The notes beneath the pieces are model-generated. The model was not told the origin of the DNA. It did no database searches and saw only the letters and a program-made list of their open reading frames with translations. Made by a program: the position numbers and the translations under genes. A stretch of DNA of 64,000 bases from Pseudomonadota bacterium (GTDB lineage Bacteria > Pseudomonadota > Gammaproteobacteria > SURF-13). Of this stretch, positions 4,370 to 64,000 are shown piece after piece; position 1 is the first letter of the stretch, and each line of letters starts with the position of its first letter. The stretch spans positions 62,203 to 126,202 of the forward strand of contig JAQBXX010000001.1 of the NCBI GenBank assembly GCA_027624315.1, in the 5' to 3' direction.

Positions 4370-5773
4370 CTACAACGCCTCGGAGGCGTAGTCTGCAAGC
4401 CGTGAGCGCTCGCCGCGCATGAGCGTGATATGCCCGCTGTACTGCCAGGCCTTGAACCGGTCCACCACATAGGTCAGGCCCGAGGTGGTCTCGGTGAGAT
4501 ACGGCGTGTCGATCTGCGCCACGTTGCCAAGGCACACCACCTTGCTGCCCGGCCCGGCGCGCGTGATCAGCGTCTTCATCTGCTTGGCGGTGAGGTTCTG
4601 CGCCTCGTCTAGAATGATGAATTTGTTGAGGAAGGTGCACCCGCGCATGAAATTGAGCGAGCGTATCTTGATGCGGCTGCGCAGCAGGTCGTGGGTGGCG
4701 GCGCGGCCCCAGTCGCCGCCGACATCGGACTGGGTGAGCACCTCCAGATTGTCCATCAGCGCGCCCATCCACGGCGTCATCTTCTCTTCCTCGGTGCCCG
4801 GCAGGAAGCCGATGTCTTCCCCCACCGGCACCGTCACGCGCGTCATGATGATCTCGCTGTAGCGCTTTTCATCCAGCACCTGCTCCAGGCCCGCGGCGAG
4901 CGTGAGCAGCGTCTTGCCCGCGCCCGCGGTGCCGAGCAGCGTGACAAAATCGACCTCGGAGTCCATCAGCAGATTGAGCGCGTAATTCTGTTCGCGATTG
5001 CGCGCGTTCACGCCCCACACCGCATGACGCGCGGTGCGGAAATCGCGTACCAGCTCGATCGTCGCGCTCTCACCCTCCAGCGCGCGCACGATGGCCTCGA
5101 AGCCGCTCTCATCCGCGCTGAACAAGAACTGGTTCGGACACCAGTGCGCCACCTCCGGGCCGCTGATCTTGTAAAACGTGCGCCCGCTCTCCTGCCACGA
5201 CGCCATGTTCTTGCTGTGCGTGTCCCAGAAATTCGCGGGCAGTTCCCCGGCGCCGCTGTAGAGCAGGTTGACATCGTCCAGCACCTGATCGTTGTAGTAG
5301 TCCTCGGCATACACCCCGAGCACCGCTGCCTTGATGCGCAGGTTGATGTCCTTGGAGACCAGAATCACCGTGACGTCGCGGTGCTCCTGTTGCAGCGCGA
5401 TCACCGTGCCGAGGATGTTGTTGTCCGGGCGATGGCCGGGCAGCGCCTCGTGCAGTTCGAGCGGCATGCGGCGGGTCTGAAAAAACAGACGCCCGTGGGC
5501 GCCGGCCGCCTGACTGAAGGCCGGCAGCGCAAGTCCGCGGTCGATCTCGTCCTTGCTCGCGTTGCGCATCAGATCGTCGAGAAAGCGGCTCACCTGACGC
5601 ACGTTGCGCGCGACTTCCGACAGACCCTTCTTCCCCGCGTCCAGCTCCTCCAGCACCATCATCGGCAGATAGACGTCGTGCTCCTGAAAGCGGAAGATCG
5701 CGGTGGGATCGTGCATCAACACATTGGTGTCGAGCACGAACAAACGCTTGCCGGTGATTTCTTTTCTGGTCAT
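4370..5773 (-). CDS. PhoH-like ATPase with N-terminal PIN domain (YlaK family)
   Basis: N-terminal PIN (LFVLDTNVLMHD) and C-terminal PhoH P-loop (LLGTAGAGKTLL...FIILDEAQN). Start assigned at the ATG at 5773 (MTRKEIT). Confidence 0.85.
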   Translation of the reverse strand: MTRKEITGKRLFVLDTNVLMHDPTAIFRFQEHDVYLPMMVLEELDAGKKGLSEVARNVRQVSRFLDDLMRNASKDEIDRGLALPAFSQAAGAHGRLFFQTRRMPLELHEALPGHRPDNNILGTVIALQQEHRDVTVILVSKDINLRIKAAVLGVYAEDYYNDQVLDDVNLLYSGAGELPANFWDTHSKNMASWQESGRTFYKISGPEVAHWCPNQFLFSADESGFEAIVRALEGESATIELVRDFRTARHAVWGVNARNREQNYALNLLMDSEVDFVTLLGTAGAGKTLLTLAAGLEQVLDEKRYSEIIMTRVTVPVGEDIGFLPGTEEEKMTPWMGALMDNLEVLTQSDVGGDWGRAATHDLLRSRIKIRSLNFMRGCTFLNKFIILDEAQNLTAKQMKTLITRAGPGSKVVCLGNVAQIDTPYLTETTSGLTYVVDRFKAWQYSGHITLMRGERSRLADYASEAL

Positions 5774-5799
5774 ATAACCTATAGTTCGCAACGCTAATT

Positions 5800-5896
5800 C
5801 CCTCCCCCTTTATGGGGGAGGGTTAGGGTGGGGGTGTGGTAACCGGCATCATTTCACCCCCATCCCCGCCTTCCCCCATCAAGGGGGAAGAAGTCA
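5800..5896. repeat. GC-rich REP-like repeat family, two adjacent units
   Basis: ccctccccctttatgggggagggttagggtgggggtg followed by cacccccatccccgccttcccccatcaagggggaag. Shares the core GGGGGAGGG..AGGGTGGGGGT with copies at 1476, 6411, 29408 and 16651 (inverted). Confidence 0.7.
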
Positions 5897-6370
5897 TTAT
5901 GCACCCAGCGCCTTTACCGCCTCCACCACCTCATCCACGTGCCCCTCCACCTTCACCTTGCGCCACTCCTTGCGCAACACGCCGCTCTGGTCGATGAGAA
6001 AGGTGCTGCGCTGCATGCCCACCACTTCCCTGCCGTACATCATCTTGGGCTGCATGACGTCAAACAGCGTGCATACCTTTTCGTCCGCGTCGGACAGCAG
6101 ATCGAAGCTGAAACCCTCCTGCTCCTTGAACGACTCGTGCGACTTCACGCTGTCGCGCGACACGCCCAGAACCACGGTATTCAGCCTGGCGAAGCGCGCC
6201 GCAGCATCGCGGAAATTCTGCCCCTCCAGCGTGCAGCCCGGCGTGTTGTCCTTGGGGTAGAAATACAACACGACGTTTTTTCCCTTCAGGCCGGAAAGCG
6301 CGATGCGCTTGCCGCCGGTGGCGGGCAATTCGAAATCCGGCACGGCCTTACCGACACTCACCTTGCTCAT
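5897..6370 (-). CDS. bcp: thiol peroxidase Bcp (peroxiredoxin)
   Basis: 157 aa with AhpC/TSA motif YFYPKDNTPGCT. Conserved gcvR-bcp neighbourhood. Confidence 0.9.
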   Translation of the reverse strand: MSKVSVGKAVPDFELPATGGKRIALSGLKGKNVVLYFYPKDNTPGCTLEGQNFRDAAARFARLNTVVLGVSRDSVKSHESFKEQEGFSFDLLSDADEKVCTLFDVMQPKMMYGREVVGMQRSTFLIDQSGVLRKEWRKVKVEGHVDEVVEAVKALGA

Positions 6371-6410
6371 GTTGCACCTCGTACATTATCAACGCAGCAA
6401 CAAAACATAT

Positions 6411-6470
6411 CCCCTCCCCCTTGACGGGGGAGGGCCAGGGTGGGGGTGAAATGCCTGACCCTCACCCAAC
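6411..6470. repeat. GC-rich REP-like repeat
   Basis: cccctcccccttgacgggggagggccagggtgggggtgaaatgcc forms a stem-loop (ccctccccc/gggggaggg) followed by the agggtgggggt motif. Confidence 0.7.
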
Positions 6471-6482
6471 CCTCATATAACC

Positions 6483-7013
6483 CTAGCGCTTAAGCGGCTC
6501 CAGCACCCCGTCCAGATTCATCTCCTCGCACAGATTCATGAACTCATCGCGCAGCGCCGCAATGTGCACCGAGGCGGGGATGTTGACCGTCAGGTTGAGC
6601 GCAAACATCGGCGTGGCGGAATGCGCCGAGGTATAGCCGCTGGTGTAGAGGTCTTCGATGTTGATACTGCGCGCGGTGAAAAAGTCCGCCATGCGGTAGA
6701 TGATGCCGGGACGGTCCACGGTGACGATCTCGGCGATGTAAGGCAGCAGCGGAGTCTCGGTGGAGCGCACCTCGGTACGGCGGGCGCTGATCGTGAGCCC
6801 CAGCCGCTCCTGCAACGCGGACAAGCCGCCCTCCACCTTGGCAATCGCACTCCAGTTGCCGGTGATCATGAGCACAGCGGCAAACTCGCTCCCCAGCACC
6901 GTCATGCGGCTGTCGGCGATGGTGCAGCCGCACTCCATCAGCGCCTGCGCCAACTCCTTGAGCAGCCCGGGCCGGTCTTTACCCAAGGCGGAAATAACGA
7001 GCAAGACTTTCAT
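6483..7013 (-). CDS. gcvR: ACT-domain glycine cleavage regulator GcvR-like protein
   Basis: 176 aa with two ACT-like halves. It sits upstream of bcp, as gcvR does in enterobacteria and pseudomonads. Confidence 0.7.
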   Translation of the reverse strand: MKVLLVISALGKDRPGLLKELAQALMECGCTIADSRMTVLGSEFAAVLMITGNWSAIAKVEGGLSALQERLGLTISARRTEVRSTETPLLPYIAEIVTVDRPGIIYRMADFFTARSINIEDLYTSGYTSAHSATPMFALNLTVNIPASVHIAALRDEFMNLCEEMNLDGVLEPLKR

Positions 7014-7186
7014 TCGATATGGGCGCCCCAGCGCAACATTGGATAATGTGGATATTGATGGGATGTTAAGTGACTTTCATTATACAAACAATTCACCACC
7101 GCGGAAAAAGAAAAGCCCCTCGTGAGAGGGGCTTTGAGTAATTGGGCTTGTTTCGTATTCAGCCCAACAGTGCTTGTTGTGATGGG

Positions 7187-7610
7187 TTACAGCTTACAGA
7201 GAATTGGAGCAGAGCCTTGCGCGGTCAAGCATCCGCTACCGGTTTTAGCCCAAGTCGTAGCGCCGACACCCAAAGTAGGAATCAATATTAAAGTGGATGC
7301 CGCATTAGTGGTGGAGGTTGGCGTTACGGTAATAGTTCCATTTGCGACAGCAATGGACGCTACATGAGTTGTTGCTTGTGTGGCGGGGATGCCATTTGTC
7401 TCAATATCACAGCCTGTAACGGTACCAAGTTCTTGTGCACAGATAGCAACAGCGGTTTTGTATGCGCTTGACACTGCAACCACTTCTGCGAATTTAGCCT
7501 TAAACGTGTAATCTTGGTAAGCTGGAATCGCCACAGCCGCCAGAATACCAATGATGGCGACCACGATCATCAATTCAATCAGGGTAAAGCCTTGTTGCAG
7601 CTTTTTCATA
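7187..7610 (-). CDS. pilA: type IVa pilin (PilA)
   Basis: [34 protein letters not shown] is the class III signal peptide with the N-methylphenylalanine site. A C-terminal Cys...Cys loop is present. The gene is AT-rich relative to its flanks. An AGGAGC Shine-Dalgarno lies 7 nt upstream of the ATG at 7610. Confidence 0.85.
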
Positions 7611-7704
7611 ATGTGCTCCTCAATGTAGGTTAAATTTTTAGCAACCTCGAGCCCGGTCTTGTAGCAGGTGACTACGGACTCGAAGCTTGACGGGCAACTA
7701 CTCA

Positions 7705-7720
7705 GCAGCATTCGTGCCAC
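7705..7720 (-). promoter_or_regulatory. sigma-54 (-24/-12) promoter candidate for pilA
   Basis: The minus strand reads TGGCACgaatgCTGCT, matching TGGCAC-N5-TTGCW, about 95 nt upstream of the pilA ATG. Pilin genes in pseudomonads are typically RpoN/PilR dependent. Confidence 0.5.
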
Positions 7721-8007
7721 CCGGCTTGATCCCGGACTTTATTTAAAACAACTCACTATTTTTTAATAATTTTATATTCTTGTACACCGCTTCATGCAGC
7801 ACCTGAATGAGATCTTTTCGGGGCAAGCATTCTCCACGTCACCCAACGTTTAGCGCAGAATGTGACGCAAAACGTCACCTGCTCCCCCAACCCTCCTCGC
7901 TGCGTCAGCAGCGTAGCGTGCGCCATACGCACGCTGAGGCAAGCCGGAGTATCCATACTACGACTCTTGACTCGGTAGCTACATGGTCATATATTATGAC
8001 TATGTTA

Positions 8008-8160
8008 GGGAAGCTCTGATTTATTCAGAGCTTCCCTGCGGCACACGGATGTGCCGCCATTTCTCAAACACGCAAGTGTTTGAGAAATGAAGAAAAACGA
8101 AAATCGCATTTTCGTTTTTCGTCTCTGAAAATTCCATGGATGGAATTATTCAGAGTTTCC
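8008..8160 (-). repeat. composite multi-hairpin intergenic element, copy A (inverted relative to copies C and D)
   Basis: The reverse complement aligns module by module with 28922-29075 and 31843-31984. The modules are ctctgaataattcc..ggaatt..cagag, gaaaaacgaaaatgcgattttcgtttttc, tttctcaaacacttgcgtgtttgagaaa, gcggcacatccgtgtgccgc and gggaagctctgaataaatcagagcttccc. Confidence 0.8.
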
Positions 8161-8179
8161 TTAGTAAGGGAGAGTCGCC

Positions 8180-8403
8180 ATGGAAAAGTTTAACATCGCC
8201 GAAGCCAAGGCTCATTTTTCCGAGCTGGTGCAGAAGGCCATGCTGGGTAAAGAGGTGATTATCGCCAAGGGTAGCAAGCCCCTGCTCAAGCTGGTTCCAC
8301 TGGCGCCAACACAGCCGCGCAAGCCGGGGTCGGGTAAGGGGCAGGTGCTCCATGTGGCATCTGATTTCGATGCCGCTCTGGAGGATTTTAAGGGCTACAC
8401 CTG

Positions 8404-8404
<1 letters not shown>
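8180..8404 (+). CDS. type II antitoxin (Phd/YefM-like, VapB-type)
   Basis: 74 aa, MEKFNIAEAKAHFSELVQKAMLGKEVIIAKGSKPLLKLVP. Overlaps the downstream PIN toxin start (ATGA). Confidence 0.8.
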
Positions 8405-9838
<1,434 letters not shown>

Positions 9839-9931
9839 CGGATCCGACACCCGTTTGCCGGTTCCGCGCTGCGCGCTTGCACCGACCTGCCGTGTAACAC
9901 TCCCGTCATATATGTTTCATATCCTCACGGC

Positions 9932-12001
9932 ATGAGCGATATCGACTTGAAGCAACCCGAACTCTACATCAACCGCGAACTCTCGCAACTCGAGTTCGAC
10001 CGCCGCGTGCTGGAGCTCGCGACTGACAAAACCGTTCCGCTGCTCGAGCGGCTGCGCTTCTTGTGCATCTCCAGCACCAACCTCGACGAATTTTTTGAAA
10101 TCCGCGTCTCCGGCCTGAAGCAGCAGGCGCAGGCGGGTGCAGTACAGGCCGGGCCGGATAATCTCAACCTGCAGGACACGCTCAAGCGCATCAGCGACAT
10201 AGCGCACGCGCTGGTCGCGGAGCAATACCGTATTTTGAATGAGGCGCTGATCCCGGAGCTGGCCGCAGAAAACATCCGTTTCGTGCGGCGCACGCACTGG
10301 AGCGCCAAACAGGCCGTCTGGGTGAGGCGTTACTTCAATGAAGAATTGCTGCCGGTGCTGAGCCCGATGGGGCTCGACCCGGCGCATCCGTTCCCGCGCA
10401 TACTGAACAAAAGCCTTAATTTTATTGTGGCGCTGGAAGGCAAAGACGCCTTCGGGCGCAATAGCGGCGTCGCCGTGGTGCAGGCGCCGCGCTCGCTGCC
10501 GCGCCTGATTCATCTGCCGCGCGATTGCTCCAAAGGCCCACACGACTTCGTGTTTCTCTCCTCCATCATTCACGCGCACGTGAATGACCTGTTCCCCGGC
10601 ATGAAGGTCACCGGCTGTTTTCAGTTTCGCCTCACGCGCAACAGCGAACTGTTTGTCAACGAAGAAGAGATCGACGACCTGTTGCACGCGCTGGAAGGCG
10701 AGCTACCCATGCGTCACTATGGTGATGCCCTGCGCCTGGAAGTGGCCGACAACTGTACGCACGAAATGGCGCATTTTCTGTTGCGCCAGTTCGACCTGAG
10801 CGCGGAAGACTTGTATCAGGTCGCCGGGCCGGTGAATCTCCATCGCCTGATGATGATCCCCGATCTGGTCGACCGGCCTGACCTGAAGTATCCCGCCTTC
10901 ACCCCCGGCCTGCCGCGGCGTCTGGCACACACTACTGACGTGTTTGAGGTGATGCGGCGTGGCGACGTGCTGCTGCATCATCCGTTTGAATCGTTTGCGC
11001 CCGTGATCGACTTCGTGCGTCAGGCGGCGGCGGATCCGAACGTGCTTGCGATCAAGCAGACGCTGTACCGCACCGGCGCCGAATCGGCACTGGTGGATAT
11101 GCTGGTCGATGCGGCGCACGCGGGCAAGGAGGTCACCGTAGTGGTCGAGCTGCGCGCGCGTTTCGACGAAGCGGACAACATCAACTCCGCCAACCGCCTG
11201 CAGGACGCCGGCGCGCACGTGGTCTACGGCGTGGTCGGGTACAAGACCCACGCCAAGATGATTCTGGTGGTGCGGCGTGAAGGCAAACGGCTGCGCCGCT
11301 ATGTGCATCTCGCCACCGGCAACTATCATGCACGCACCACGCGCACCTACACCGATTTCGGCCTGTTTACCTGCGACAAGGATATCGGCGACGATGTGCA
11401 CAAGGTGTTTCAGCAACTCACCGGACTGGGCCGCGCGATCAAGCTCAAAAAACTGCTGCAATCGCCGTTCACGCTTTTCAAAACCCTGCGTGAACTGGTG
11501 GCACGCGAGGCCGCGCATGCCAAACAAGGCAAGCCCGCACGCATCATCGCCAAGATGAATGCGCTTTCCGAACCGCAGATGATTGAGGCCTTGTATGAGG
11601 CCTCGCGTGCCGGAGTAAAAATTGATTTAATTGTGCGCGGCGTTTGCTGTCTGCGGCCGGGTGTGCCGGGCGTTTCCGAAAACATCCAGGTGCGCTCCGT
11701 CGTCGGCCGTTTTCTTGAGCACAGCCGCGTATTTTATTTCCACAACGATGGTAACTCCGCCGTGTATTGCTCCAGCGCCGACTGGATGACGCGCAACCTG
11801 TTCCGCCGCGTTGAGGCCTGCTTCCCGGTCGAGGACAAGCGTCTCGCCGCGCGCCTCCTGAACGAAGGCCTGCAGCCGTATCTCGCCGACAACAGCCAGA
11901 CCTGGCAGTTGCGCAGCGACGGCACCTACAAGCGCATCAAGCCCGGCGGCCATAAACCGCGCTCGGCTCAGCAGTTTCTGTTAGAAACACTCGCTGACTG
12001 A
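9932..12001 (+). CDS. ppk: polyphosphate kinase 1
   Basis: 689 aa Ppk1 (ELYINRELSQLEFDRRVLE...; two PLD-like HKD regions). Confidence 0.95.
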   Translation: MSDIDLKQPELYINRELSQLEFDRRVLELATDKTVPLLERLRFLCISSTNLDEFFEIRVSGLKQQAQAGAVQAGPDNLNLQDTLKRISDIAHALVAEQYRILNEALIPELAAENIRFVRRTHWSAKQAVWVRRYFNEELLPVLSPMGLDPAHPFPRILNKSLNFIVALEGKDAFGRNSGVAVVQAPRSLPRLIHLPRDCSKGPHDFVFLSSIIHAHVNDLFPGMKVTGCFQFRLTRNSELFVNEEEIDDLLHALEGELPMRHYGDALRLEVADNCTHEMAHFLLRQFDLSAEDLYQVAGPVNLHRLMMIPDLVDRPDLKYPAFTPGLPRRLAHTTDVFEVMRRGDVLLHHPFESFAPVIDFVRQAAADPNVLAIKQTLYRTGAESALVDMLVDAAHAGKEVTVVVELRARFDEADNINSANRLQDAGAHVVYGVVGYKTHAKMILVVRREGKRLRRYVHLATGNYHARTTRTYTDFGLFTCDKDIGDDVHKVFQQLTGLGRAIKLKKLLQSPFTLFKTLRELVAREAAHAKQGKPARIIAKMNALSEPQMIEALYEASRAGVKIDLIVRGVCCLRPGVPGVSENIQVRSVVGRFLEHSRVFYFHNDGNSAVYCSSADWMTRNLFRRVEACFPVEDKRLAARLLNEGLQPYLADNSQTWQLRSDGTYKRIKPGGHKPRSAQQFLLETLAD

Positions 12002-57624: not shown

Positions 57625-58497
57625 ATGAGCAAGGTCATGGACAAATTTGAGAAACTGCGCGACATGGAGGCCTTTACCGAGACCATGTTCAACCGCATCT
57701 TTGAATTCCAGCAGAAGCTGCATCCGGCCTGGAATGCCGAACTGCCGTTCGGCGAGCGCATCAAGAATCTGCCGCTGCACTACCTCGTATTCAGCACCCC
57801 GGACCGTGACCCGAAACTGTTTGCCCCCACAGTCGCGCCGTACTACCCGCTGCATGAAGAGATGCGGAAGATTGCGTGGTATGCGCGCCGCGTCGCGCAA
57901 CAGCCGCTGGCGTGCGATGTCCATTGCGGCAACGGCTTCATCGGTAGCCTGCTGGCGCGCGAGGGCGTAAAGGTCATCGGTGTGCGCGACCCGGAGGCGA
58001 GACCGAATCAGATCGCCGATTTTTATGACAAGAATTGCTATGAAATCCGCAGCGCTAAATTCGTTGGCATCGATTTCCCGTTTGACGTTGCGTTCTCGTC
58101 GTGGATGCCGTCCGGCGTGAATCTCATGCCGGAGATTGTACGGCGCGCACCGAAACTCATCGTATATATCCACACCGACCACGTCAACGAAGAAACCGGT
58201 GCGGCGCAGACCGGAACGCCCGAGGCGTTCACTCAGCTGCCTGTGCGTTACAAGCTCATTGATGAGTGGTCAGTGACGCGGCCGGCAGATATGTTTTATG
58301 AAATCTGGCCCGATTTGAGCCGTAACATGGAAGAGACGCGGCACGTCAAAATATACGCCGACGGACCCTGGCACGATCTTGCGTATCAGGCGCCGCCGGG
58401 AACCAGCGCAGAGTATGACTGGGAGCAGGAGTTGGCGATCACCACTCTCGCACTGGAGGCTAAATCCATGCTGCGCGCGCGGGGTCACCATCTGTAA
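57625..58497 (+). CDS. putative class I SAM-dependent methyltransferase-like protein (hypothetical)
   Basis: 290 aa with a Rossmann-like DVHCGNGFIGSLLAREGVKVIGV (GxGxG) motif. Function unknown. Confidence 0.55.
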   Translation: MSKVMDKFEKLRDMEAFTETMFNRIFEFQQKLHPAWNAELPFGERIKNLPLHYLVFSTPDRDPKLFAPTVAPYYPLHEEMRKIAWYARRVAQQPLACDVHCGNGFIGSLLAREGVKVIGVRDPEARPNQIADFYDKNCYEIRSAKFVGIDFPFDVAFSSWMPSGVNLMPEIVRRAPKLIVYIHTDHVNEETGAAQTGTPEAFTQLPVRYKLIDEWSVTRPADMFYEIWPDLSRNMEETRHVKIYADGPWHDLAYQAPPGTSAEYDWEQELAITTLALEAKSMLRARGHHL

Positions 58498-59125
58498 TTT
58501 TCGTTTTTATAGCGCCTAGAATGACAGCACCCGCCTCCGATATGCCACCATGGGTATCAACAGCAGACAGGCTGCTGCAATTACAGCAGGAAACAAAACT
58601 GTTGTCAGCGAGTAATGCTCCAGCGCCATAATGGCTATAAGGTTACGTGCCGTGCCTGCCCCAAGCGCCAATGTGGCACTGCAGGCCAATACAGTGCTAC
58701 AATGGCCCGGCAAATACAGGGATTACCGTGAATGGAGTCATTGCGTTCACGGATGGGCATCACTTTTATGCCAACGATGTATCCCTGCAACAGGGTGCGA
58801 ACACCTTGGAGGCCATTGCGACAACGCCCAGAGGCAAAAGCGCCGTTGCTACACTTTAATCATACGCCATTGCGTTTCCGGTCAATATGTATCGGTGCAT
58901 GGGTTGGCAGGAACTGAAAAATATGGCTACATCCAGATAGTCGTTTTCGAACCCACCCGCTCCGTCCCACCGCCATCACGTCTCCGAGGGCGGGCAGAGT
59001 TGTCGCAGCAGTTCCCGGCGAAGCTGTATCGCGCCAAAGAAAATTTAAAGGCATCCGCCCCCGCATCGGCGGCGGTTCCAGAGCCAGGTCAACCCGCGAC
59101 GTCGCGCGTTCAGGCGGAGGTGAAA

Positions 59126-59803
59126 ATGGCCGCAAAACCGAGGATTGAGCCGTTCGCCGTCAAGGACTGCGCGCTCGCCGCCATCTCCACCGGCCGGCGC
59201 GCGCAGAACCTGCGCGAACTGCGCGACCACCTGCAGGCGGTGCCCGTCGGCTGTTTCCACTACCATTTCTGGGGCGGGCTGCTGCGTCCGCGCTTCGACG
59301 ACCCCGAGTACAACAACGACTTCGCCTCGTGGGTGCGCCACGCCTTGCACGACGCACGGCTCGCCGAGCGTCTTGGCATCCTCGATCCGGCCGAGTACGC
59401 CGATGTCGAACAATTGCGCCGGGAACTGGTGGACATTATCGAGCAGCGACTCGACGAAACCGAGTTTCTCGCCTGGGCGCGGCGCAACCAGCAGTTTCAC
59501 TTCGTCCGCGCTCAGACTGTCGTGTTCGACACGCGCAAGCGTCTCACCCACCCCGCGGAACTCGCCGACGCGGTCCCGGCGCTGTCGCTCGGCAGCATCT
59601 ATTACCACTTCATCGACGCGCGCCGGCGGGCGCCACAGGGCGTGGACGATTTCCGCGCCTGGCTCGATCATTTCGGCGATGAATTCCGCGACCTGCGCGA
59701 CCAGATTATGGCCATCGATCCGTATTTCATCACCCTGCGCGAGCTGCGCGAACGGCTGGCGACGCTTTTCCGCCGCCAATTTTCCGCCGGGGCGCCGTCA
59801 TGA
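59126..59803 (+). CDS. conserved hypothetical protein translationally coupled to treT
   Basis: 225 aa, MAAKPRIEPFAVKDCALAAISTG... GGAGG Shine-Dalgarno 5 nt upstream. Its stop overlaps the treT ATG (ATGA). The ORF frame is open back to 58631, but the upstream part lacks coding features. Confidence 0.5.
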   Translation: MAAKPRIEPFAVKDCALAAISTGRRAQNLRELRDHLQAVPVGCFHYHFWGGLLRPRFDDPEYNNDFASWVRHALHDARLAERLGILDPAEYADVEQLRRELVDIIEQRLDETEFLAWARRNQQFHFVRAQTVVFDTRKRLTHPAELADAVPALSLGSIYYHFIDARRRAPQGVDDFRAWLDHFGDEFRDLRDQIMAIDPYFITLRELRERLATLFRRQFSAGAPS

Positions 59804-61041
59804 GTGCGTTGCTGCAGGACTACGCCGCCGTGGTCGGCGAGGATGTCATCGACCAGTTGTTGCAGCTGGCGGAACCGCTCAAGGGCAAGAAGGTCGTGCA
59901 CATCAACTCCACGCGTGTCGGCGGCGGCGTGGCCGAGATTCTCACGAAGCTCGTACCACTACAGCGAGAGCTCGGCATGGATGCACGGTGGGAGATCATT
60001 CCCGGCCAGGACGAATTCTACCAATGCACCAAGCTGTTCCATAACGCGCTCCAGGGCCGGACAGCGGTGTTGTCAGAATCGCTGAAACAGGCCTACGAGG
60101 AGGCCAATGCCCAGTGTGCGGAGGAGCATCGCGCCCTGCTACGCGACGCCGACGTCGTCTTCATTCACGATCCGCAGCCGGCGGCGCTACTGCCGCACAT
60201 CCATGACCGCAAGGGCAAGTGGATCTGGCGCTGCCATATCGACGTCAGTCACCCGCAACGCCAGATCTGGCGTTACCTGAGCGGGTTCGTCGCCGGCTAC
60301 GACGCGAGCGTGTTCTCGCTCGCCGATTTTGCGCAGATGCTGCCGCACTCGGTGTACCTGATCCCGCCGAGCATCGACCCCTTGAGCGAGAAGAACCGCG
60401 AGCTGCCGGAAAAGGAAATTCGCGAAACCTGCGAGCTGCACCGCATCGACCCGGACCGGCCGATGATGCTGCAGGTGTCGCGCTTCGACCGTTTCAAGGA
60501 CCCGCTCGGCGTGGTCCAGGCCTATTACCTCGCCAAGAAGTTCATTCCGGCGCTGCAGCTGGTGCTGGCGGGCGGCGGCGCAAGCGACGACCCGGAGGGC
60601 GACGCCGTGCTCGCCGAAGTGCAGGCCGCGGTCAAGGGCGACGCGGATGCGCACGTCCTGTTCCTGCCGCCGGACGCGCACCGCACCGTCAACGCGTTGC
60701 AGCGTGCGGCGTTATTCGTGCTGCAAAAGTCCGTGCGCGAGGGTTTCGGTCTCACCGTGGCCGAGGCATTGTGGAAGGGAAAACCGGTCATCGGCGGCAA
60801 TACCGGCGGTATTCGCCTGCAGGTCGTTAATCATCACACCGGCTTCCTCGTCGATTCGCCGGAGGGCGCGGCGCTGCGCATCCGTTACCTGCTGCACCAT
60901 CCCGACAAGCTCGCAGAAATGGGAGGCAAGGCGCGCGAATTCGTGCGCGATAATTTCCTGATCACGCGCCAGTTGCGCGAATACCTCACGCTCATGGTCG
61001 CCCTGGTGCACGGCGCCAACGGCCGGCTGGTGCTGGAATGA
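59800..61041 (+). CDS. treT: trehalose glycosyltransferring synthase TreT-like GT4 glycosyltransferase
   Basis: KKVVHINSTRVGGGVAEILTKLVPLQRELGMDARWEIIPGQDEFYQCTKLFHNALQG closely matches the archaeal/bacterial TreT N-terminal block, plus a C-terminal GT4 motif (REGFGLTVAEALWKGKPVIG). Confidence 0.75.
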   Translation: MSALLQDYAAVVGEDVIDQLLQLAEPLKGKKVVHINSTRVGGGVAEILTKLVPLQRELGMDARWEIIPGQDEFYQCTKLFHNALQGRTAVLSESLKQAYEEANAQCAEEHRALLRDADVVFIHDPQPAALLPHIHDRKGKWIWRCHIDVSHPQRQIWRYLSGFVAGYDASVFSLADFAQMLPHSVYLIPPSIDPLSEKNRELPEKEIRETCELHRIDPDRPMMLQVSRFDRFKDPLGVVQAYYLAKKFIPALQLVLAGGGASDDPEGDAVLAEVQAAVKGDADAHVLFLPPDAHRTVNALQRAALFVLQKSVREGFGLTVAEALWKGKPVIGGNTGGIRLQVVNHHTGFLVDSPEGAALRIRYLLHHPDKLAEMGGKAREFVRDNFLITRQLREYLTLMVALVHGANGRLVLE

Positions 61042-61841
61042 CGGCGACCGTGAAAACGCTGCGCGAAGGCGTCGATCTGACGGAGTTCTTCCGGCGCGTG
61101 CGCGCCGCGAACACGCGCCTGCTGCTGCTCGACTACGATGGCACGCTGGCACCGTTTCACCTCGACCCGGCGCAGGCGCGGCCCTATCCCGGCGTGTGCG
61201 AGCGGCTGGACGCGATCATGGAGAACGCACGCACGCGGCTGGTGCTGATCAGCGGCCGCTGGACGCGCGACCTGCTGCCGCTGCTCACGTTGCGACGGCG
61301 CCCGGAAATCTGGGGTTCGCACGGCTGGGAACAACTCACGCCCGACGGCGGCTACGCCGTGGCGCCGATCGGCGAGACGGCGCTCGCCCGGCTGCTGGAT
61401 GCGGACGTACTCGAAGCACGCATCGTCGCCCTCGGCGGGCGCTGCGAGCGCAAGCCCGGCGGGTTCGCAGTCCACTGGCGCGGACTCGCGCCCAACCAGA
61501 TAGCGGACATCCGCAGCGATGTGTTCGAGAATTGGATGGATCAGGGACTGCACCGCGACCTCGTGTGGCATGACTTCGACGGCGGCGTCGAGCTGCGGGC
61601 GCCGGGACGCCACAAGGGCTACGTCGTGGACACGTTGCTGGCGGAGGCGCCGGGCGCGGTCGCCGCCTACCTCGGCGACGACCTCACGGACGAAGATGCG
61701 TTCCGGGCGATCAAGGACAAGGGTCTCGGCATCCTGGTGCGGCCCGAATTCCGGCCGACGGAAGCCGACTTGTGGCTGCGCCCTCCGGCGGAATTGCTCG
61801 ATTTTCTCGATCGCTGGCGCGATGCCGGGAACGCGCGATGA
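61038..61841 (+). CDS. otsB: trehalose-6-phosphate phosphatase-like HAD-IIB hydrolase
   Basis: 267 aa with HAD motif I LLLLDYDGTLAP and motif IV YLGDDLTDEDAF. Confidence 0.8.
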   Translation: MTATVKTLREGVDLTEFFRRVRAANTRLLLLDYDGTLAPFHLDPAQARPYPGVCERLDAIMENARTRLVLISGRWTRDLLPLLTLRRRPEIWGSHGWEQLTPDGGYAVAPIGETALARLLDADVLEARIVALGGRCERKPGGFAVHWRGLAPNQIADIRSDVFENWMDQGLHRDLVWHDFDGGVELRAPGRHKGYVVDTLLAEAPGAVAAYLGDDLTDEDAFRAIKDKGLGILVRPEFRPTEADLWLRPPAELLDFLDRWRDAGNAR

Positions 61842-62896
61842 GCTGGCTCGAACGCGGCATCTACGGCAGCCCCTTGGCCGACTGGCTCGTCGCCCTGGGC
61901 ATCGCGGCCGGCGCGGCCGTCCTGCTGCTGTTGTTGCGGCGCACGGTCCCGTCCTGGTTCGCCGCCCGGGCACGCCGAACCGAAACCCGCGTGGACGATA
62001 TCGTCGTGGAGGTTCTGGCCGCGACCAAGCCGGCGTTCCTGCTGGTCGCGGCGCTCTACCTCGGGGCGCAATACCTCACACTTCCGGACAAGATCGCGCG
62101 CATCGTCGACGGCATCGCCCTCGTCGCATTGCTGTTGCAGGCGGGCGCTTGGGGCCAGCGCGGCATCGCCCTCGCCCTGCGCCTGAAGAAGGAGACCGAC
62201 GCCGCCGGCGCCACCACGCTCACGGTACTCGGGTTCGTGGGGCGCATCGTGCTGTGGTCGGTCGTGGCGCTGATGATCCTCGACAACCTCGGCGTCAACA
62301 TCACCGCCCTGGTGGCGAGCCTCGGCATCGGCGGCATCGCCGTGGCGCTCGCGGTGCAGAACATCCTTGGCGATATCTTCGCCTCGCTCTCGATCACGCT
62401 CGACCGCCCGTTCGCGATCGGCGATTTCATCGTCGTCGGCGACGTGCTCGGCACGGTGGAGTACATCGGCCTCAAGACCACGCGCATCCGCAGCCTCTCC
62501 GGCGAGCAGATCGTGTTCTCCAACGCCGACCTGCTGAAAAGCCGCATCCACAACTACAAGCGCATGACCGAGCGCCGGGTGGTGTTCGGCTTCGGCGTCG
62601 TCTACCAGACCCCGGCCGACAAGCTCGAATGCATCCCGGCCATGGTGCGCGAAGCCATCGAGGCGCAACCGAAGACGCGTTTCGACCGCGCGCACTTCAA
62701 GGAGTACGGCGACTCGGCGCTGACATTCGAGGCGGTCTATTTCGTGCTCGACCCGGACTACAACGTCTACATGGACATGCAGCAGGCGGTGAACCTGGCC
62801 CTGTTCCGGCGTTTCCAGGACGAAGGCATCGGCTTTGCCTACCCGACGCGCACCGTGCACCTCCAGCCGGCGGACAACACGAGGGAGACCCCATGA
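61838..62896 (+). CDS. MscS-family mechanosensitive channel
   Basis: Transmembrane helices plus the MscS signature (IGGIAVALAVQNILGDIFASL...PFAIGDFIVVGDVLGTVEYIGLKTTRIRSLSGEQIVF). Start ATG overlaps the otsB stop. Confidence 0.8.
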   Translation: MSWLERGIYGSPLADWLVALGIAAGAAVLLLLLRRTVPSWFAARARRTETRVDDIVVEVLAATKPAFLLVAALYLGAQYLTLPDKIARIVDGIALVALLLQAGAWGQRGIALALRLKKETDAAGATTLTVLGFVGRIVLWSVVALMILDNLGVNITALVASLGIGGIAVALAVQNILGDIFASLSITLDRPFAIGDFIVVGDVLGTVEYIGLKTTRIRSLSGEQIVFSNADLLKSRIHNYKRMTERRVVFGFGVVYQTPADKLECIPAMVREAIEAQPKTRFDRAHFKEYGDSALTFEAVYFVLDPDYNVYMDMQQAVNLALFRRFQDEGIGFAYPTRTVHLQPADNTRETP

Positions 62897-64000
62897 ACGA
62901 CCGGCCACGCGCCAGTCTTTCGCGCTCGCTGCGGTTGGGATTGTTCATCGCCGCCGTCATCGGCCTCGTCACCGGGCTTTTCGCCTGGCACCAGATCGAA
63001 AGCGAGCGCGCGATCAACCTCGACGACGTGGCCCGCCGCGCGCACGTGCTGGCGCAGCAGCTCTCCGTCCGTGCCACGCATGCGCTCGCGCTGCCGGACG
63101 CACAGGCACGACTGGCGCTGCGGCCGCGACTCGAGGGCTACCAGCGATTGCTCGGCTACGCGGTGTTTCGCGCCGACGGCCGACTGCTGGCTGCGGGCAA
63201 GGCGGTGTCGGCATTCACCGACAAGCTCGACGACCCGGCGCGCCAGGCATTGCAATCCGGCAAGGAAGTCACGCAACTCTTGCGTGCCTCGGGCATGCAC
63301 GTCCACGTGTTGATGAAACCGCTGCCCGGAGCAACGCCAGCGACGGGCGCGCTGGCAGTGGTACACGACGTCACCTTTCTGGACGACCGCGCGGTAGCCC
63401 GGCTGGCGCAGTTCGGTTTCTGGATATTGATCATCACGCTGCTCGCGGTCGCGCTCGTGGTGGGCAGCACCTGGCTCGCGTACGAGCGGCCGCTGCACAA
63501 GCTCGCCGACTGGATGCGGCGCCTGCGCACCGAAAACGTCGCCGAGGCGCCACCGGGGCTGCCCTCGGGGCGGCTGCGCAGCGAATCGGACCGGCTCGCG
63601 GCGTCGTTCCGCGCGGCGCGCTCCACCGGCCAGGTGCTCTCGGAAGCGGCAATGCATGCCGAACAGGTATGGACCCCGGAGCGGCTGCGCACGCATGGAC
63701 TCGCGGCTCTCGGCGAGGCCCGCCAGCTCATCGTGGTCAGCAACCGCGAGCCCTACATGCACCAGTGGCACGACGGCAAACCGCACGTGATCGTGCCGGC
63801 GGGAGGACTCGTCACCGCGCTCGACCCGGTACTCCAAGCCTGTGGCGGCGTGTGGATCGCGCACGGCGCCGGCGATGCCGACCGCGCGACAGCCGACGCC
63901 GCCGGCCGGCTCACGGTACCGCCCGACGATGCGCGCTACACGCTCAAACGCGTATGGCTCACGCGCCAGGAGGAACAGGGCTACTACTACGGCTTCTCGA
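62893..64000 (+). CDS. GT20 synthase (OtsA/GgpS-like) with an N-terminal two-transmembrane periplasmic-loop extension; 3' end beyond the window
   Basis: Translated by hand. Transmembrane helix 1 LGLFIAAVIGLVTGLFAW, a roughly 150-aa loop, transmembrane helix 2 FGFWILIITLLAVALVVGSTWLA, then LIVVSNREPYMHQWHDGKPHVIVPAGGLVTALDPVL...YYYGF, which matches the N-terminal block of GT20 trehalose-6-P / glucosylglycerol-P synthases. ATGA overlap with the MscS gene. Confidence 0.7.
   Translation, partial: MNDRPRASLSRSLRLGLFIAAVIGLVTGLFAWHQIESERAINLDDVARRAHVLAQQLSVRATHALALPDAQARLALRPRLEGYQRLLGYAVFRADGRLLAAGKAVSAFTDKLDDPARQALQSGKEVTQLLRASGMHVHVLMKPLPGATPATGALAVVHDVTFLDDRAVARLAQFGFWILIITLLAVALVVGSTWLAYERPLHKLADWMRRLRTENVAEAPPGLPSGRLRSESDRLAASFRAARSTGQVLSEAAMHAEQVWTPERLRTHGLAALGEARQLIVVSNREPYMHQWHDGKPHVIVPAGGLVTALDPVLQACGGVWIAHGAGDADRATADAAGRLTVPPDDARYTLKRVWLTRQEEQGYYYGFS

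Follow-up and report, generated by a model that had tools for sequence, protein, structure and literature searches.

The window, a stretch of 64,000 nucleotides, ends in a cluster of five forward-strand genes that are joined by four ATGA overlaps (at positions 59800, 61038, 61838, and 62893) in the order DUF5752 (OrfY homologue), TreT, trehalose-6-phosphate (T6P) phosphatase, MscS, and a sensor-fused T6P synthase, which is referred to below as sensor-OtsA. The original prediction described a translationally coupled cluster of the synthase gene with treT, otsB, and mscS, and both the overlaps and the Pfam and NCBIfam matches bear this out; its count of four genes has to be raised by a fifth coupled gene for a DUF5752/OrfY protein at 59126-59803.

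The first gene (59126..59803, + strand) encodes a 225-aa protein of the DUF5752/OrfY family (PF19027, 286 bits). Its ATG is preceded by GGAGG and its stop overlaps the treT start in an ATGA; at NCBI the same product of 225 aa is named 'DUF5752 family protein'. Over its full length the protein matches PDB 4cso, 'ORFY PROTEIN, TRANSCRIPTION FACTOR' from Thermoproteus tenax (E 1.3e-26); the role ascribed to OrfY is the label 'transcription factor' chosen by the depositors of that entry, and a literature search found no paper on OrfY/DUF5752. The second gene (59800..61041, +) encodes a 413-aa TreT-type trehalose glycosyltransferring synthase of family GT4 (PF21269 TreT_GT1, 189 bits), which matches PDB 6zj4 ('Trehalose phosphorylase/synthase', 431.8 bits) and PDB 2x6q ('TREHALOSE-SYNTHASE TRET', 379.8 bits) at full length, and scores under the cutoff of the NCBIfam model TreT_Thcocales (407 vs 775). 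The third gene (61038..61841, +) encodes a 267-aa HAD-IIB trehalose-6-phosphate phosphatase, OtsB (TIGR00685, 84.3 bits against a cutoff of 68.05; PF02358, 62.5 bits), and the fourth (61838..62896, +) a 352-aa MscS-family mechanosensitive channel with matches to PF21088, PF00924, and PF21082 over their cutoffs and a start at 61838 that agrees with the 352-aa NCBI product. The profile and structure-sequence matches also uphold the earlier proposal that the cluster encodes two routes to trehalose side by side, one through TreT and one through OtsA/OtsB.

From the gene arrangement, the five genes are predicted to be co-transcribed. A promoter scan of positions 58400-59300 found no sigma-70-like site, and Rfam gave no matches in the whole window. 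The base composition shows no more than a mild rise in GC over the trehalose module, and hence no clear island signal.

The last gene, sensor-otsA, starts with an ATG at 62893, ahead of which a Shine-Dalgarno-like GAGGGAGA can be read in the sequence at 62881..62888 (+), and its frame stays open up to the window end; the 369 codons translated from 62893..64000 (+) are the first of 762. Contig L084, whose nucleotides agree with window positions 61420-64000 without a difference (100% identity over 2581 nt), supplied the complete protein of 762 aa; on the source contig, the gene is expected to end at coordinate 65181. The original prediction had named a full sequence lacking GT20 catalytic residues as one way in which it could fail; with the rest of the gene obtained from L084, the full protein keeps all of them.

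A search with the sensor-OtsA protein returned 797 matches; among the 120 listed, the majority span 92-100% of the query. With a profile of the N-terminal part alone, 296 clusters (50% identity) were retrieved at E<=1e-30. In an alignment of 75 full-length family sequences (74 relatives and one composite of the window protein and P0007), the N-terminal residues G88, P200, W207, E231, W260, T261, and L265 are each conserved in at least 97% of the sequences, and R264 of the WTxxRL motif is invariant in two smaller family alignments. Because of this conservation at the protein level across phyla, the N-terminal 277 aa read as real coding sequence and not as chance.

The same observation bears on a caveat of the original prediction, namely that the upstream codons might be untranslated and the product might be a soluble OtsA initiated at an internal methionine such as M254. 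In favour of such a start, the NCBI record of the relative P0076 gives a protein of 500 aa whose first residue corresponds to M254; on P0076's own contig, however, the sensor region lies intact and in frame upstream of the annotated start. Moreover, the family does not keep M254, the ATG at 62893 is preceded by a Shine-Dalgarno sequence and overlaps mscS in an ATGA, and the 277 residues are kept as protein across phyla, which makes an internal start scarcely credible. Three relatives of about 500 aa (P0076, P0098, and P0058; 83-86% identity) were considered as soluble forms and rejected, P0076 for its in-frame upstream sensor and the other two since they start mid-linker, as fragments would.

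The N-terminal region contains two strongly hydrophobic segments and no more (Kyte-Doolittle; aa ~13-33 and ~173-196), with positive flanks on the N-terminal side of the first and the C-terminal side of the second, and an N-in, inner-membrane topology is predicted. According to the AlphaFold (AF2) model of aa 1-369 (pLDDT 88.9), residues 1-277 form a TM1, single-Cache (PDC), TM2, HAMP-like hairpin, and WTxxRL linker arrangement. TM1 (62929..62991, +; aa ~13-33; Kyte-Doolittle mean up to 2.16) lies within model helix 11-65 and is followed by a putative periplasmic single-Cache/PDC-like sensor domain (62992..63408, +; aa ~34-172; AF2 pLDDT ~95), in which the AF2 model and Foldseek recover the PDC fold between the two TM helices, that is, a long N-terminal helix and then an antiparallel sheet with flanking helices. 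The predicted periplasmic loop between the TM helices measures ~139 aa and not the ~150 given by the original prediction. TM2 (63409..63480, +; aa ~173-196; mean up to 2.49) lies within helix 161-213. The HAMP-like helix-connector-helix (63481..63660, +; aa ~197-256), delimited from the AF2 model and a structural alignment, runs as a helix up to aa 213, through a loop (214-225), and into a second helix (226-256), and the conserved linker helix with the WTxxRL motif (63661..63723, +; aa ~257-277) enters strand beta-1 of GT20 through helix 262-273.

In Foldseek searches, the top fold match of the sensor module was the TM-sCache-TM-HAMP part of the kinase WalK (9a5d_A, a full-length WalK model; E 2.9e-8, 277 columns), in line with the original prediction of a GT20 synthase carrying an N-terminal two-TM sensor-like module. 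The Cache region matches the WalK extracellular domain (4ywz, 7dud) with a TM-score of 0.66-0.68 and an rmsd of 3.6, and the isolated sensor domains of WalK, KinD, and CitA with E-values of 2e-4 to 3e-3 and TM-scores of at most 0.68. At the level of sequence profiles, a Pfam scan of the window protein and the complete protein gave no Cache-clan match, while among 79 relatives sCache_3_2 was matched in 25 (best E 3.8e-8), SMP_2 in 25, and CHASE8 in 16. The family alignments contain few conserved polar residues in the periplasmic domain (R49 and D159 only), and thus no family-wide ligand pocket is evident.

The hairpin lies directly after the last TM helix and has the features of a HAMP-type element, a helix-connector-helix of ~50-60 aa with a conserved Pro starting AS1 and a Glu starting AS2; here these are P200 and E231, kept in at least 97% of the 75 sequences, and the region co-aligns structurally with the TM2-HAMP region of WalK. 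The Pfam HAMP model (PF00672) did not match the window protein and matched 2 of the 79 relatives at E<=0.05 (E ~0.02), and hhalign against the HAMP domain of Af1503, for which an approximate reference sequence was used, aligned AS1 alone with a probability of 11.6%. As this sequence evidence is weak, the region is called HAMP-like, on structural grounds only.

The GT20 match begins at aa 278, later than the ~240 aa estimated by the original prediction, and the window holds the N-terminal 92 residues of the domain (63724..64000, +), with the acceptor-phosphate residue Arg285 and the GGL loop among them, as aligned to the OtsA structure 5jij. This part alone (aa 278-369) scores 52.8 bits with PRK14501 and 37.5 bits with TIGR02400; only OtsA-type models match it, and GgpS gives no hit. 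In the complete protein, PF00982 (GT20) covers aa 278-744 with 404.9 bits (cutoff 32.5). The NCBIfam scores of this protein are 434.8 bits with TIGR02400 (OtsA), 488.4 with PRK14501 (TPS/TPP, TPSP), 276.5 with PRK10117, and 274.5 with TIGR02398 (GgpS), each under the respective equivalog cutoff (564.85, 634, 759, and 569). By these scores, sensor-OtsA constitutes a distinct GT20 subfamily whose closest curated neighbours are OtsA and TPSP, and since it falls under the OtsA and TPSP equivalog cutoffs its exact substrates are not certain.

The residues R285, Y365, D420, H444, R556, K561, R594, D655-L659, and E663 are kept in at least 97% of the 75 full-length sequences and correspond in the alignment to Arg18, Tyr90, Asp144, His168, Arg286, Lys291, Arg324, Asp385-Leu389, and Glu393 of M. 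thermoresistibile OtsA, for which the roles of these residues have been described (PMC6879718). The donor- and acceptor-binding and catalytic residues are thus all conserved, among them five of the five glucose-6-phosphate-contacting residues in the window protein, and the genome pairs the synthase with a T6P phosphatase, the window protein that passes TIGR00685. The full-length model of a 761-aa relative (P0163) fits the ternary complex of a T6P synthase (5jio) with a TM-score of 0.90; the structure models depict monomers and give no reliable view of communication between the HAMP-like and GT20 parts. A family-specific residue, His654, occupies the position just before the catalytic Asp, where solved OtsA enzymes have an Arg. 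The GT20 domain is accordingly predicted to be a complete, catalytically competent OtsA-type enzyme that would form T6P from NDP-glucose and glucose-6-phosphate.

Two other functions were weighed for this domain. It could use another acceptor, the product being something other than T6P, as in a GgpS-like glucosylglycerol-phosphate synthase; this was the assignment favoured originally, on the strength of the REPY and GGLVTAL residues. The failure to reach the equivalog cutoff of any curated OtsA model, the REPY motif common to sensor-OtsA and GgpS, and the replacement by His654 would fit another acceptor. However, the protein scores 160 bits lower with the GgpS model than with the OtsA model, the glucose-6-phosphate contacts are all in place, the coupled phosphatase passes the equivalog cutoff for T6P phosphatases, an otsB-type gene adjoins sensor-otsA, before or after it, in 32 of 62 relatives, and solved T6P synthases match at a TM-score of 0.90. 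A different acceptor is therefore improbable, and the GgpS-like call was abandoned because of the HMM scores (OtsA/TPSP 435-488 bits vs GgpS 275) and the neighbouring phosphatase gene. Alternatively, the protein might be a receptor and not an enzyme, with a GT20 domain that binds a ligand and regulates like that of plant class II TPS proteins; catalytically inactive GT20 proteins do exist in plants (PMC3634074). Nothing specific to our protein points that way, and the near-invariance of every catalytic and substrate-binding residue, the lack of any other output domain, and the coupled T6P phosphatase gene make a non-catalytic role very improbable.

Characterised OtsA enzymes are soluble. Sensor-OtsA shares with those of E. 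coli (1gz5) and M. thermoresistibile (5jij/5jio) the full GT-B GT20 fold (TM-score 0.90, 30-35% identity), all donor- and acceptor-binding residues, and the pairing with an OtsB-type phosphatase. In contrast to solved or characterised OtsA proteins of ~450-500 aa, it has 277 extra N-terminal residues, and the added TM-Cache-TM-HAMP-like-linker unit makes it an integral membrane protein by prediction. A further difference lies at the allosteric site for 2-oxoglutarate/2-phosphoglycerate, where M. thermoresistibile OtsA has Arg384 and sensor-OtsA has His654 (PMC6879718). The TM1-sCache-TM2-HAMP module of WalK (YycG) has the same order of elements and the same fold over 277 columns, but the sequence identity is 11-16%, the HAMP signature is degenerate in sensor-OtsA, and the output is a glycosyltransferase instead of a DHp/CA kinase core. 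GgpS shares the GT20 superfamily and the REPY-type N-terminal motif, and differs in that sensor-OtsA scores low on its model and neighbours a T6P phosphatase.

The closest operon studied experimentally is msc-gt-tpsp of T. tenax, in which a mechanosensitive channel, a GT4 protein, and a TPS-TPP are co-transcribed as a stress module, with trehalose proposed to be made when osmolarity rises and to leave through the channel when it falls, a logic also proposed here (Zaparty et al. 2013, PMC3634074, for T. tenax). The T. tenax GT4 was reported to be closest to PimA and activates the synthase through a complex with it, and the operon was stated to be unique to Thermoproteales (PMC3634074). The same four functions, MSC, GT4, TPS, and TPP, occur here in one predicted transcription unit; however, T. 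tenax has a TPSP fusion activated by a PimA-like GT4, whereas the window has one gene each for TPS and TPP and a GT4 homologous to TreT (432 bits, 6zj4), and the bacterial synthase bears its own transmembrane sensor. The first two genes of the window operon are full-length homologues of the TreT and OrfY pair of Thermoproteus (6zj4, 4cso), which adjoins sensor-otsA in about half of the relatives and is here joined in one operon with the OtsA/OtsB route.

What was observed, namely the protein anatomy, the sequence conservation and homology, the intact catalytic residues, and the linkage of the genes, points with a probability of about 0.6 to an inner-membrane, probably dimeric, one-component 'sensor-enzyme', for which we infer the dimerisation, the nature of the signal, and the control of catalysis by the N-terminal part as such. 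The Cache/TM module would receive a signal from outside the cytoplasm or from the membrane, most plausibly one linked to osmotic or water stress, and pass it via the HAMP-like bundle and the linker to the N-terminal Rossmann lobe of GT20, where the acceptor-phosphate-binding Arg285 lies on beta-1 only ~12 residues past the linker helix. T6P synthase activity would thus be switched post-translationally, the co-transcribed OtsB would release trehalose from T6P, TreT with its OrfY partner may provide a second, glucose-dependent trehalose route, and MscS could act as the release valve on osmotic downshift. Coupling between sensor and enzyme is suggested by the retention of P200, W207, E231, W260, T261, and L265, which belong to the small set of N-terminal residues kept in at least 97% of sequences across ~12 phyla, and by the presence of GT20 in all eight of those long top matches of a sensor-only profile for which Pfam assigned a family.

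The module could instead be a membrane tether without signalling, which anchors a constitutive OtsA, e.g. near the bilayer or MscS, while regulation is purely transcriptional. The periplasmic domain without evident conserved ligand-binding residues, the weak HAMP sequence signal, and the OrfY-type putative transcription factor in the operon are compatible with such an anchor. Yet a plain anchor needs neither a folded 139-aa Cache domain and a helical hairpin retained across ~12 phyla nor the near-invariant residues of the transmitter and linker, and the module as a whole can be superposed on the TM-Cache-TM-HAMP unit of a true signalling kinase. We regard a mere tether as rather unlikely.

To our knowledge, how the sensing of osmotic or water stress leads within seconds to the production of compatible solutes has been worked out for no more than a few soluble enzymes and transporters, and the known outputs of Cache/HAMP signalling are kinases, cyclases, and chemoreceptors. 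If the sensor-enzyme reading is true, the synthase contains its own sensing element in the form of a classical transmembrane receptor module, the cue being, for instance, osmotic or water stress or a particular ligand in the periplasm, and the range of Cache/HAMP outputs is extended to a metabolic glycosyltransferase. Sensor-OtsA might then be the first Cache-HAMP transmembrane receptor with a biosynthetic glycosyltransferase output, converting a cue to a compatible solute in one protein, and might serve Acidobacteriota and other uncultured phyla of soil and groundwater as their main trehalose switch, a tentative proposal to which we give slightly less than even odds. The reading suggests that many soil and groundwater bacteria turn on trehalose synthesis directly from an outside signal. 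The family is abundant in Acidobacteriota and hard-to-culture lineages of soil, peat, and groundwater, where drought tolerance matters, and offers a testable handle on stress sensing; the locus also combines, in bacteria, a gene set like the archaeal msc-gt-tpsp with the TreT-OrfY pair.

The sensor-OtsA design is unstudied, as a literature search found no paper describing a fusion of a sensor with T6P synthase and nothing relevant on a membrane-bound OtsA, but widespread: the fusion occurs in at least 560 species-level genomes of ~12 phyla, most of them MAGs of Acidobacteriota. The architecture is hidden by public annotation, since the fusion carries the plain database name "trehalose-6-phosphate synthase" and its start is called too late in at least one record (P0076). 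Among the best 150 matches listed for a sensor-only profile, the ten long top matches comprise 8 that carry GT20 and 2 without a Pfam family. In the 62 relatives' loci with enough flank, otsB was found at 32, orfY (DUF5752) at 30, treT at 29, and MscS at 4, and none of these partner genes at 16. The common linkage pattern is therefore otsB, orfY, and treT; the link to MscS drawn by the original prediction holds for the window operon and is occasional in the family, where MscS lies directly upstream of sensor-otsA also in two Omnitrophota MAGs.

The gene at 62893-64000 (+), here called sensor-otsA, encodes an integral-membrane OtsA-type enzyme with a receptor-type N-terminal module and intact catalytic residues; its transmitter and linker residues are conserved, as is its linkage to otsB, orfY and treT. 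The protein consists entirely of domains already known, and it is listed in databases as trehalose-6-phosphate synthase. A search of 8 million texts found no paper on the fusion, on DUF5752, or on HAMP/Cache-linked GT20, and we know of no description of a transmembrane receptor module with a biosynthetic glycosyltransferase as its output.

The original prediction of this open reading frame was borne out: it begins with the ATG at 62893, preceded by GAGGGAGA, and stays open for 369 codons to the end of the window. By sequence inspection, the start overlaps the MscS stop as ATGA, an overlap found at every junction of the cluster (59800, 61038, 61838 and 62893). The four genes proposed to be coupled are indeed coupled, and a fifth, the DUF5752 gene at 59126-59803, had been missed. 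In public annotation the neighbors appear as a DUF5752 family protein, a glycosyltransferase, a trehalose-phosphatase and a mechanosensitive channel. The complete protein, of 762 aa, is encoded on L084, a Logan contig of 4.9 kb with 100% nucleotide identity to 61420-64000 of the window; nadC is convergent downstream of the gene on this contig, which makes sensor-otsA the final gene of the operon. The 90.6%-identical relative on L001 (ENA ERZ1286166 contig_3467, 5543-11824) comes from a noisy assembly with 42 gaps over 5.1 kb, which break treT, otsB and sensor-otsA into fragments, so that its product, P0007, is truncated (607 aa). Similarity of L001 to the window starts at 58918 and the genes further upstream differ between the two, which places the left border of the trehalose module, whether mobile or conserved, at this position. 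The 630-bp spacer at 58497-59125 has a GC content of 0.53, compared with 0.62-0.72 around it, and contains short ORF fragments; a promoter scan of 58400-59300 gave no match to a sigma-70-like promoter. Between pgpA and the trehalose module lies a 290-aa ORF (57625-58497, +) with no match in Pfam or NCBIfam.

In the N-terminal part of the protein, a hydropathy scan identified two strongly hydrophobic segments (aa ~13-33 and ~173-196), the first flanked by Arg-rich sequence on its N-terminal side and the second on its C-terminal side. The loop between them is about 139 aa long, a correction of the roughly 150 aa proposed originally. AlphaFold predicts the window fragment with confidence (pLDDT 88.9) as a helix comprising TM1 and a stalk (aa 11-65), a five-stranded sheet with flanking helices (aa 69-159), a long helix comprising TM2 and its cytoplasmic extension (aa 161-213), and, after a loop, helices 226-256 and 262-273, followed by the first Rossmann strands of GT20. 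Foldseek ranked a full-length model of the kinase WalK, a histidine kinase, first (E 2.9e-8, 277 columns), ahead of crystal structures of WalK's extracellular domain (TM-score 0.66-0.68); the PDC sensor domains of KinD and CitA were also retrieved. Pfam detected sCache_3_2 in 25, SMP_2 in 25 and CHASE8 in 16 of 79 relatives, and none of these three in the window protein itself. The cytoplasmic hairpin has the position and length of a HAMP domain, with conserved Pro200 and Glu231; the modeled hairpin is named HAMP-like because sequence comparison supports HAMP only weakly.

The complete protein matches Pfam Glyco_transf_20 at aa 278-744 (405 bits), and residue 278 is where the curated OtsA-type models first match, later than the start near residue 240 given originally. 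NCBIfam scores are 488 bits for PRK14501 (TPS/TPP), 435 for TIGR02400 (OtsA) and 275 for TIGR02398 (GgpS), all under the respective equivalog cutoffs. Among solved structures, the best relatives belong to trehalose-6-phosphate synthases, M. thermoresistibile OtsA reaching E 3e-82. A relative of 761 aa gave a confident full-length model (pLDDT 86.7) that can be superposed on 5jio, the OtsA-ADP-G6P complex, with a TM-score of 0.90. Donor and acceptor are bound in M. thermoresistibile OtsA by Arg18, Tyr90, Asp144, His168, Arg286, Lys291, Arg324, Asp385-Leu389 and Glu393 (PMC6879718). In the family alignment, built from 74 full-length relatives recovered from genomes and the window/P0007 composite, the equivalent R285, Y365, D420, H444, R556, K561, R594, D655-L659 and E663 are kept in at least 97%. 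The phosphatase adjoining sensor-otsA scores above the T6P-phosphatase equivalog cutoff. Based on the model scores, the conserved binding residues, the 5jio superposition and the adjoining phosphatase, the most suitable reading of the enzyme is a T6P synthase of OtsA type in a distinct GT20 subfamily. The GgpS-like assignment made originally is not supported, given the weaker NCBIfam score and the T6P phosphatase next door. Directly before the catalytic Asp, beyond the window end, is the nearly invariant, family-specific His654 of the complete protein (encoded at L084 1474-3762). Its position corresponds to Arg384 of M. thermoresistibile OtsA, a residue of the 2-oxoglutarate/2-phosphoglycerate allosteric site (PMC6879718), and the sensor-otsA family may have exchanged metabolite allostery for receptor control.

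The partner genes have counterparts in T. tenax. The GT4 protein is a genuine homologue of TreT: along its whole length it scores 432 bits to PDB 6zj4 (deposited as trehalose phosphorylase/synthase), with 380 bits to 2x6q, the TreT structure. Both trehalose routes envisaged originally, TreT and the OtsA-type/OtsB pair, are present in the operon. The DUF5752 protein is a full-length homologue of T. tenax OrfY, which was deposited under PDB 4cso as a transcription factor. In that organism, orfY is co-transcribed with treT. For the experimentally studied msc-gt-tpsp operon of T. tenax, which comprises a mechanosensitive channel, a GT4 and a TPS/TPP, the proposal was that trehalose is made under stress and leaves through the channel; the authors regarded such an arrangement as found only in Thermoproteales (PMC3634074). 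In comparison, the window unites bacterial counterparts of both archaeal units, msc-gt-tpsp and treT-orfY, in one operon, and the functional replacement of the activating GT4 would be the receptor built into the TPS.

NDP-glucose and G6P are cytoplasmic substrates; therefore both termini must be cytoplasmic and the Cache domain periplasmic. Sensor-otsA would dimerise, as Cache-HAMP receptors do, and a periplasmic or membrane stimulus would move the HAMP-like bundle, from which the WTxxRL helix would hand the shift on to the N-terminal lobe of GT20. The acceptor-phosphate Arg285 lies in the first strand/loop of this lobe, about a dozen residues past the linker helix, and the shift would thereby gate acceptor binding or the closure of the domains. 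The presence of two routes to trehalose and of MscS in the operon points to a stimulus tied to osmotic or water stress.

The main rival to receptor control is that the N-terminal module is a non-signalling membrane tether. The highest N-terminal conservation falls in the hairpin and linker (W207, R212, W260, T261, R264 and L265), as expected if the module signals to the enzyme; the Cache domain conserves few polar residues, which leaves room for ligand, partner-protein or membrane-borne signals. On balance, we lean slightly towards actual regulation of catalysis by the module. For the anatomy and the enzyme family we put the probability at about 0.9. Translation from an internal start, without the sensor region, is unlikely. 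The 369-aa query gave 797 database matches in many phyla, most of the 120 listed covering 92-100% of it, and, searched against 1.84 billion representatives, a profile of residues 1-277 alone retrieved 296 clusters at E<=1e-30, a number that rises to 1224 at E<=1e-10. The region is conserved as protein, and it is coding and under selection. Use of alternative substrates by the GT20 domain and a pseudo-enzyme are both improbable, given the conserved donor- and acceptor-binding residues and the adjoining phosphatase.

Relatives of sensor-otsA are encoded in at least 560 species-representative genomes, with a median of 763 aa for full-length proteins. The best 80 of these are all from MAGs, about 55 of them Acidobacteriota; the rest belong to Planctomycetota, Elusimicrobiota, Omnitrophota, Nitrospirota, Syntrophus and Thermodesulfobacteriota, Gemmatimonadota, Rokubacteria, Eremiobacterota, FCPU426, one Levyibacteriota bin and Contendobacter. 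Of the closest full-length relatives, at 72-73% aa identity, L003 is in a gammaproteobacterial bin and L004 and L005 are in Acidobacteriota bins; this points either to movement of the module between phyla by horizontal transfer or to mis-binning. Of 62 loci whose flanks were long enough, tblastn detected otsB-like genes in 32, DUF5752 in 30, TreT homologues in 29, MscS in four and no partner gene in 16. The usual same-strand order is sensor-otsA, otsB, DUF5752, treT, of which the window order is a permutation. MscS adjoins sensor-otsA upstream, as in the window, in two Omnitrophota MAGs and downstream in one Planctomycetales MAG (L035 1-2857, L082 2951-6085 and L053 8019-11344); the rare channel linkage has therefore either arisen or been retained in distant phyla. 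On L002 (1-5251), the relative has GlgE and an alpha-amylase/TreS-like gene beside it, and a GH15 (trehalase-like) gene with a TREH_N domain lies between otsB and sensor-otsA on L083 (2602-5167); these neighbors suggest that the family is tied not only to the synthesis of trehalose but also to its turnover. The L083 relative itself (5236-7503; GCA_002279285.1, NCBR01000069.1) was deposited with an internal Met as its start, as a 500-aa "soluble" T6P synthase. This start was called too late, since the entire sensor region precedes it in frame, and the record illustrates how annotation can hide the sensor-enzyme architecture.
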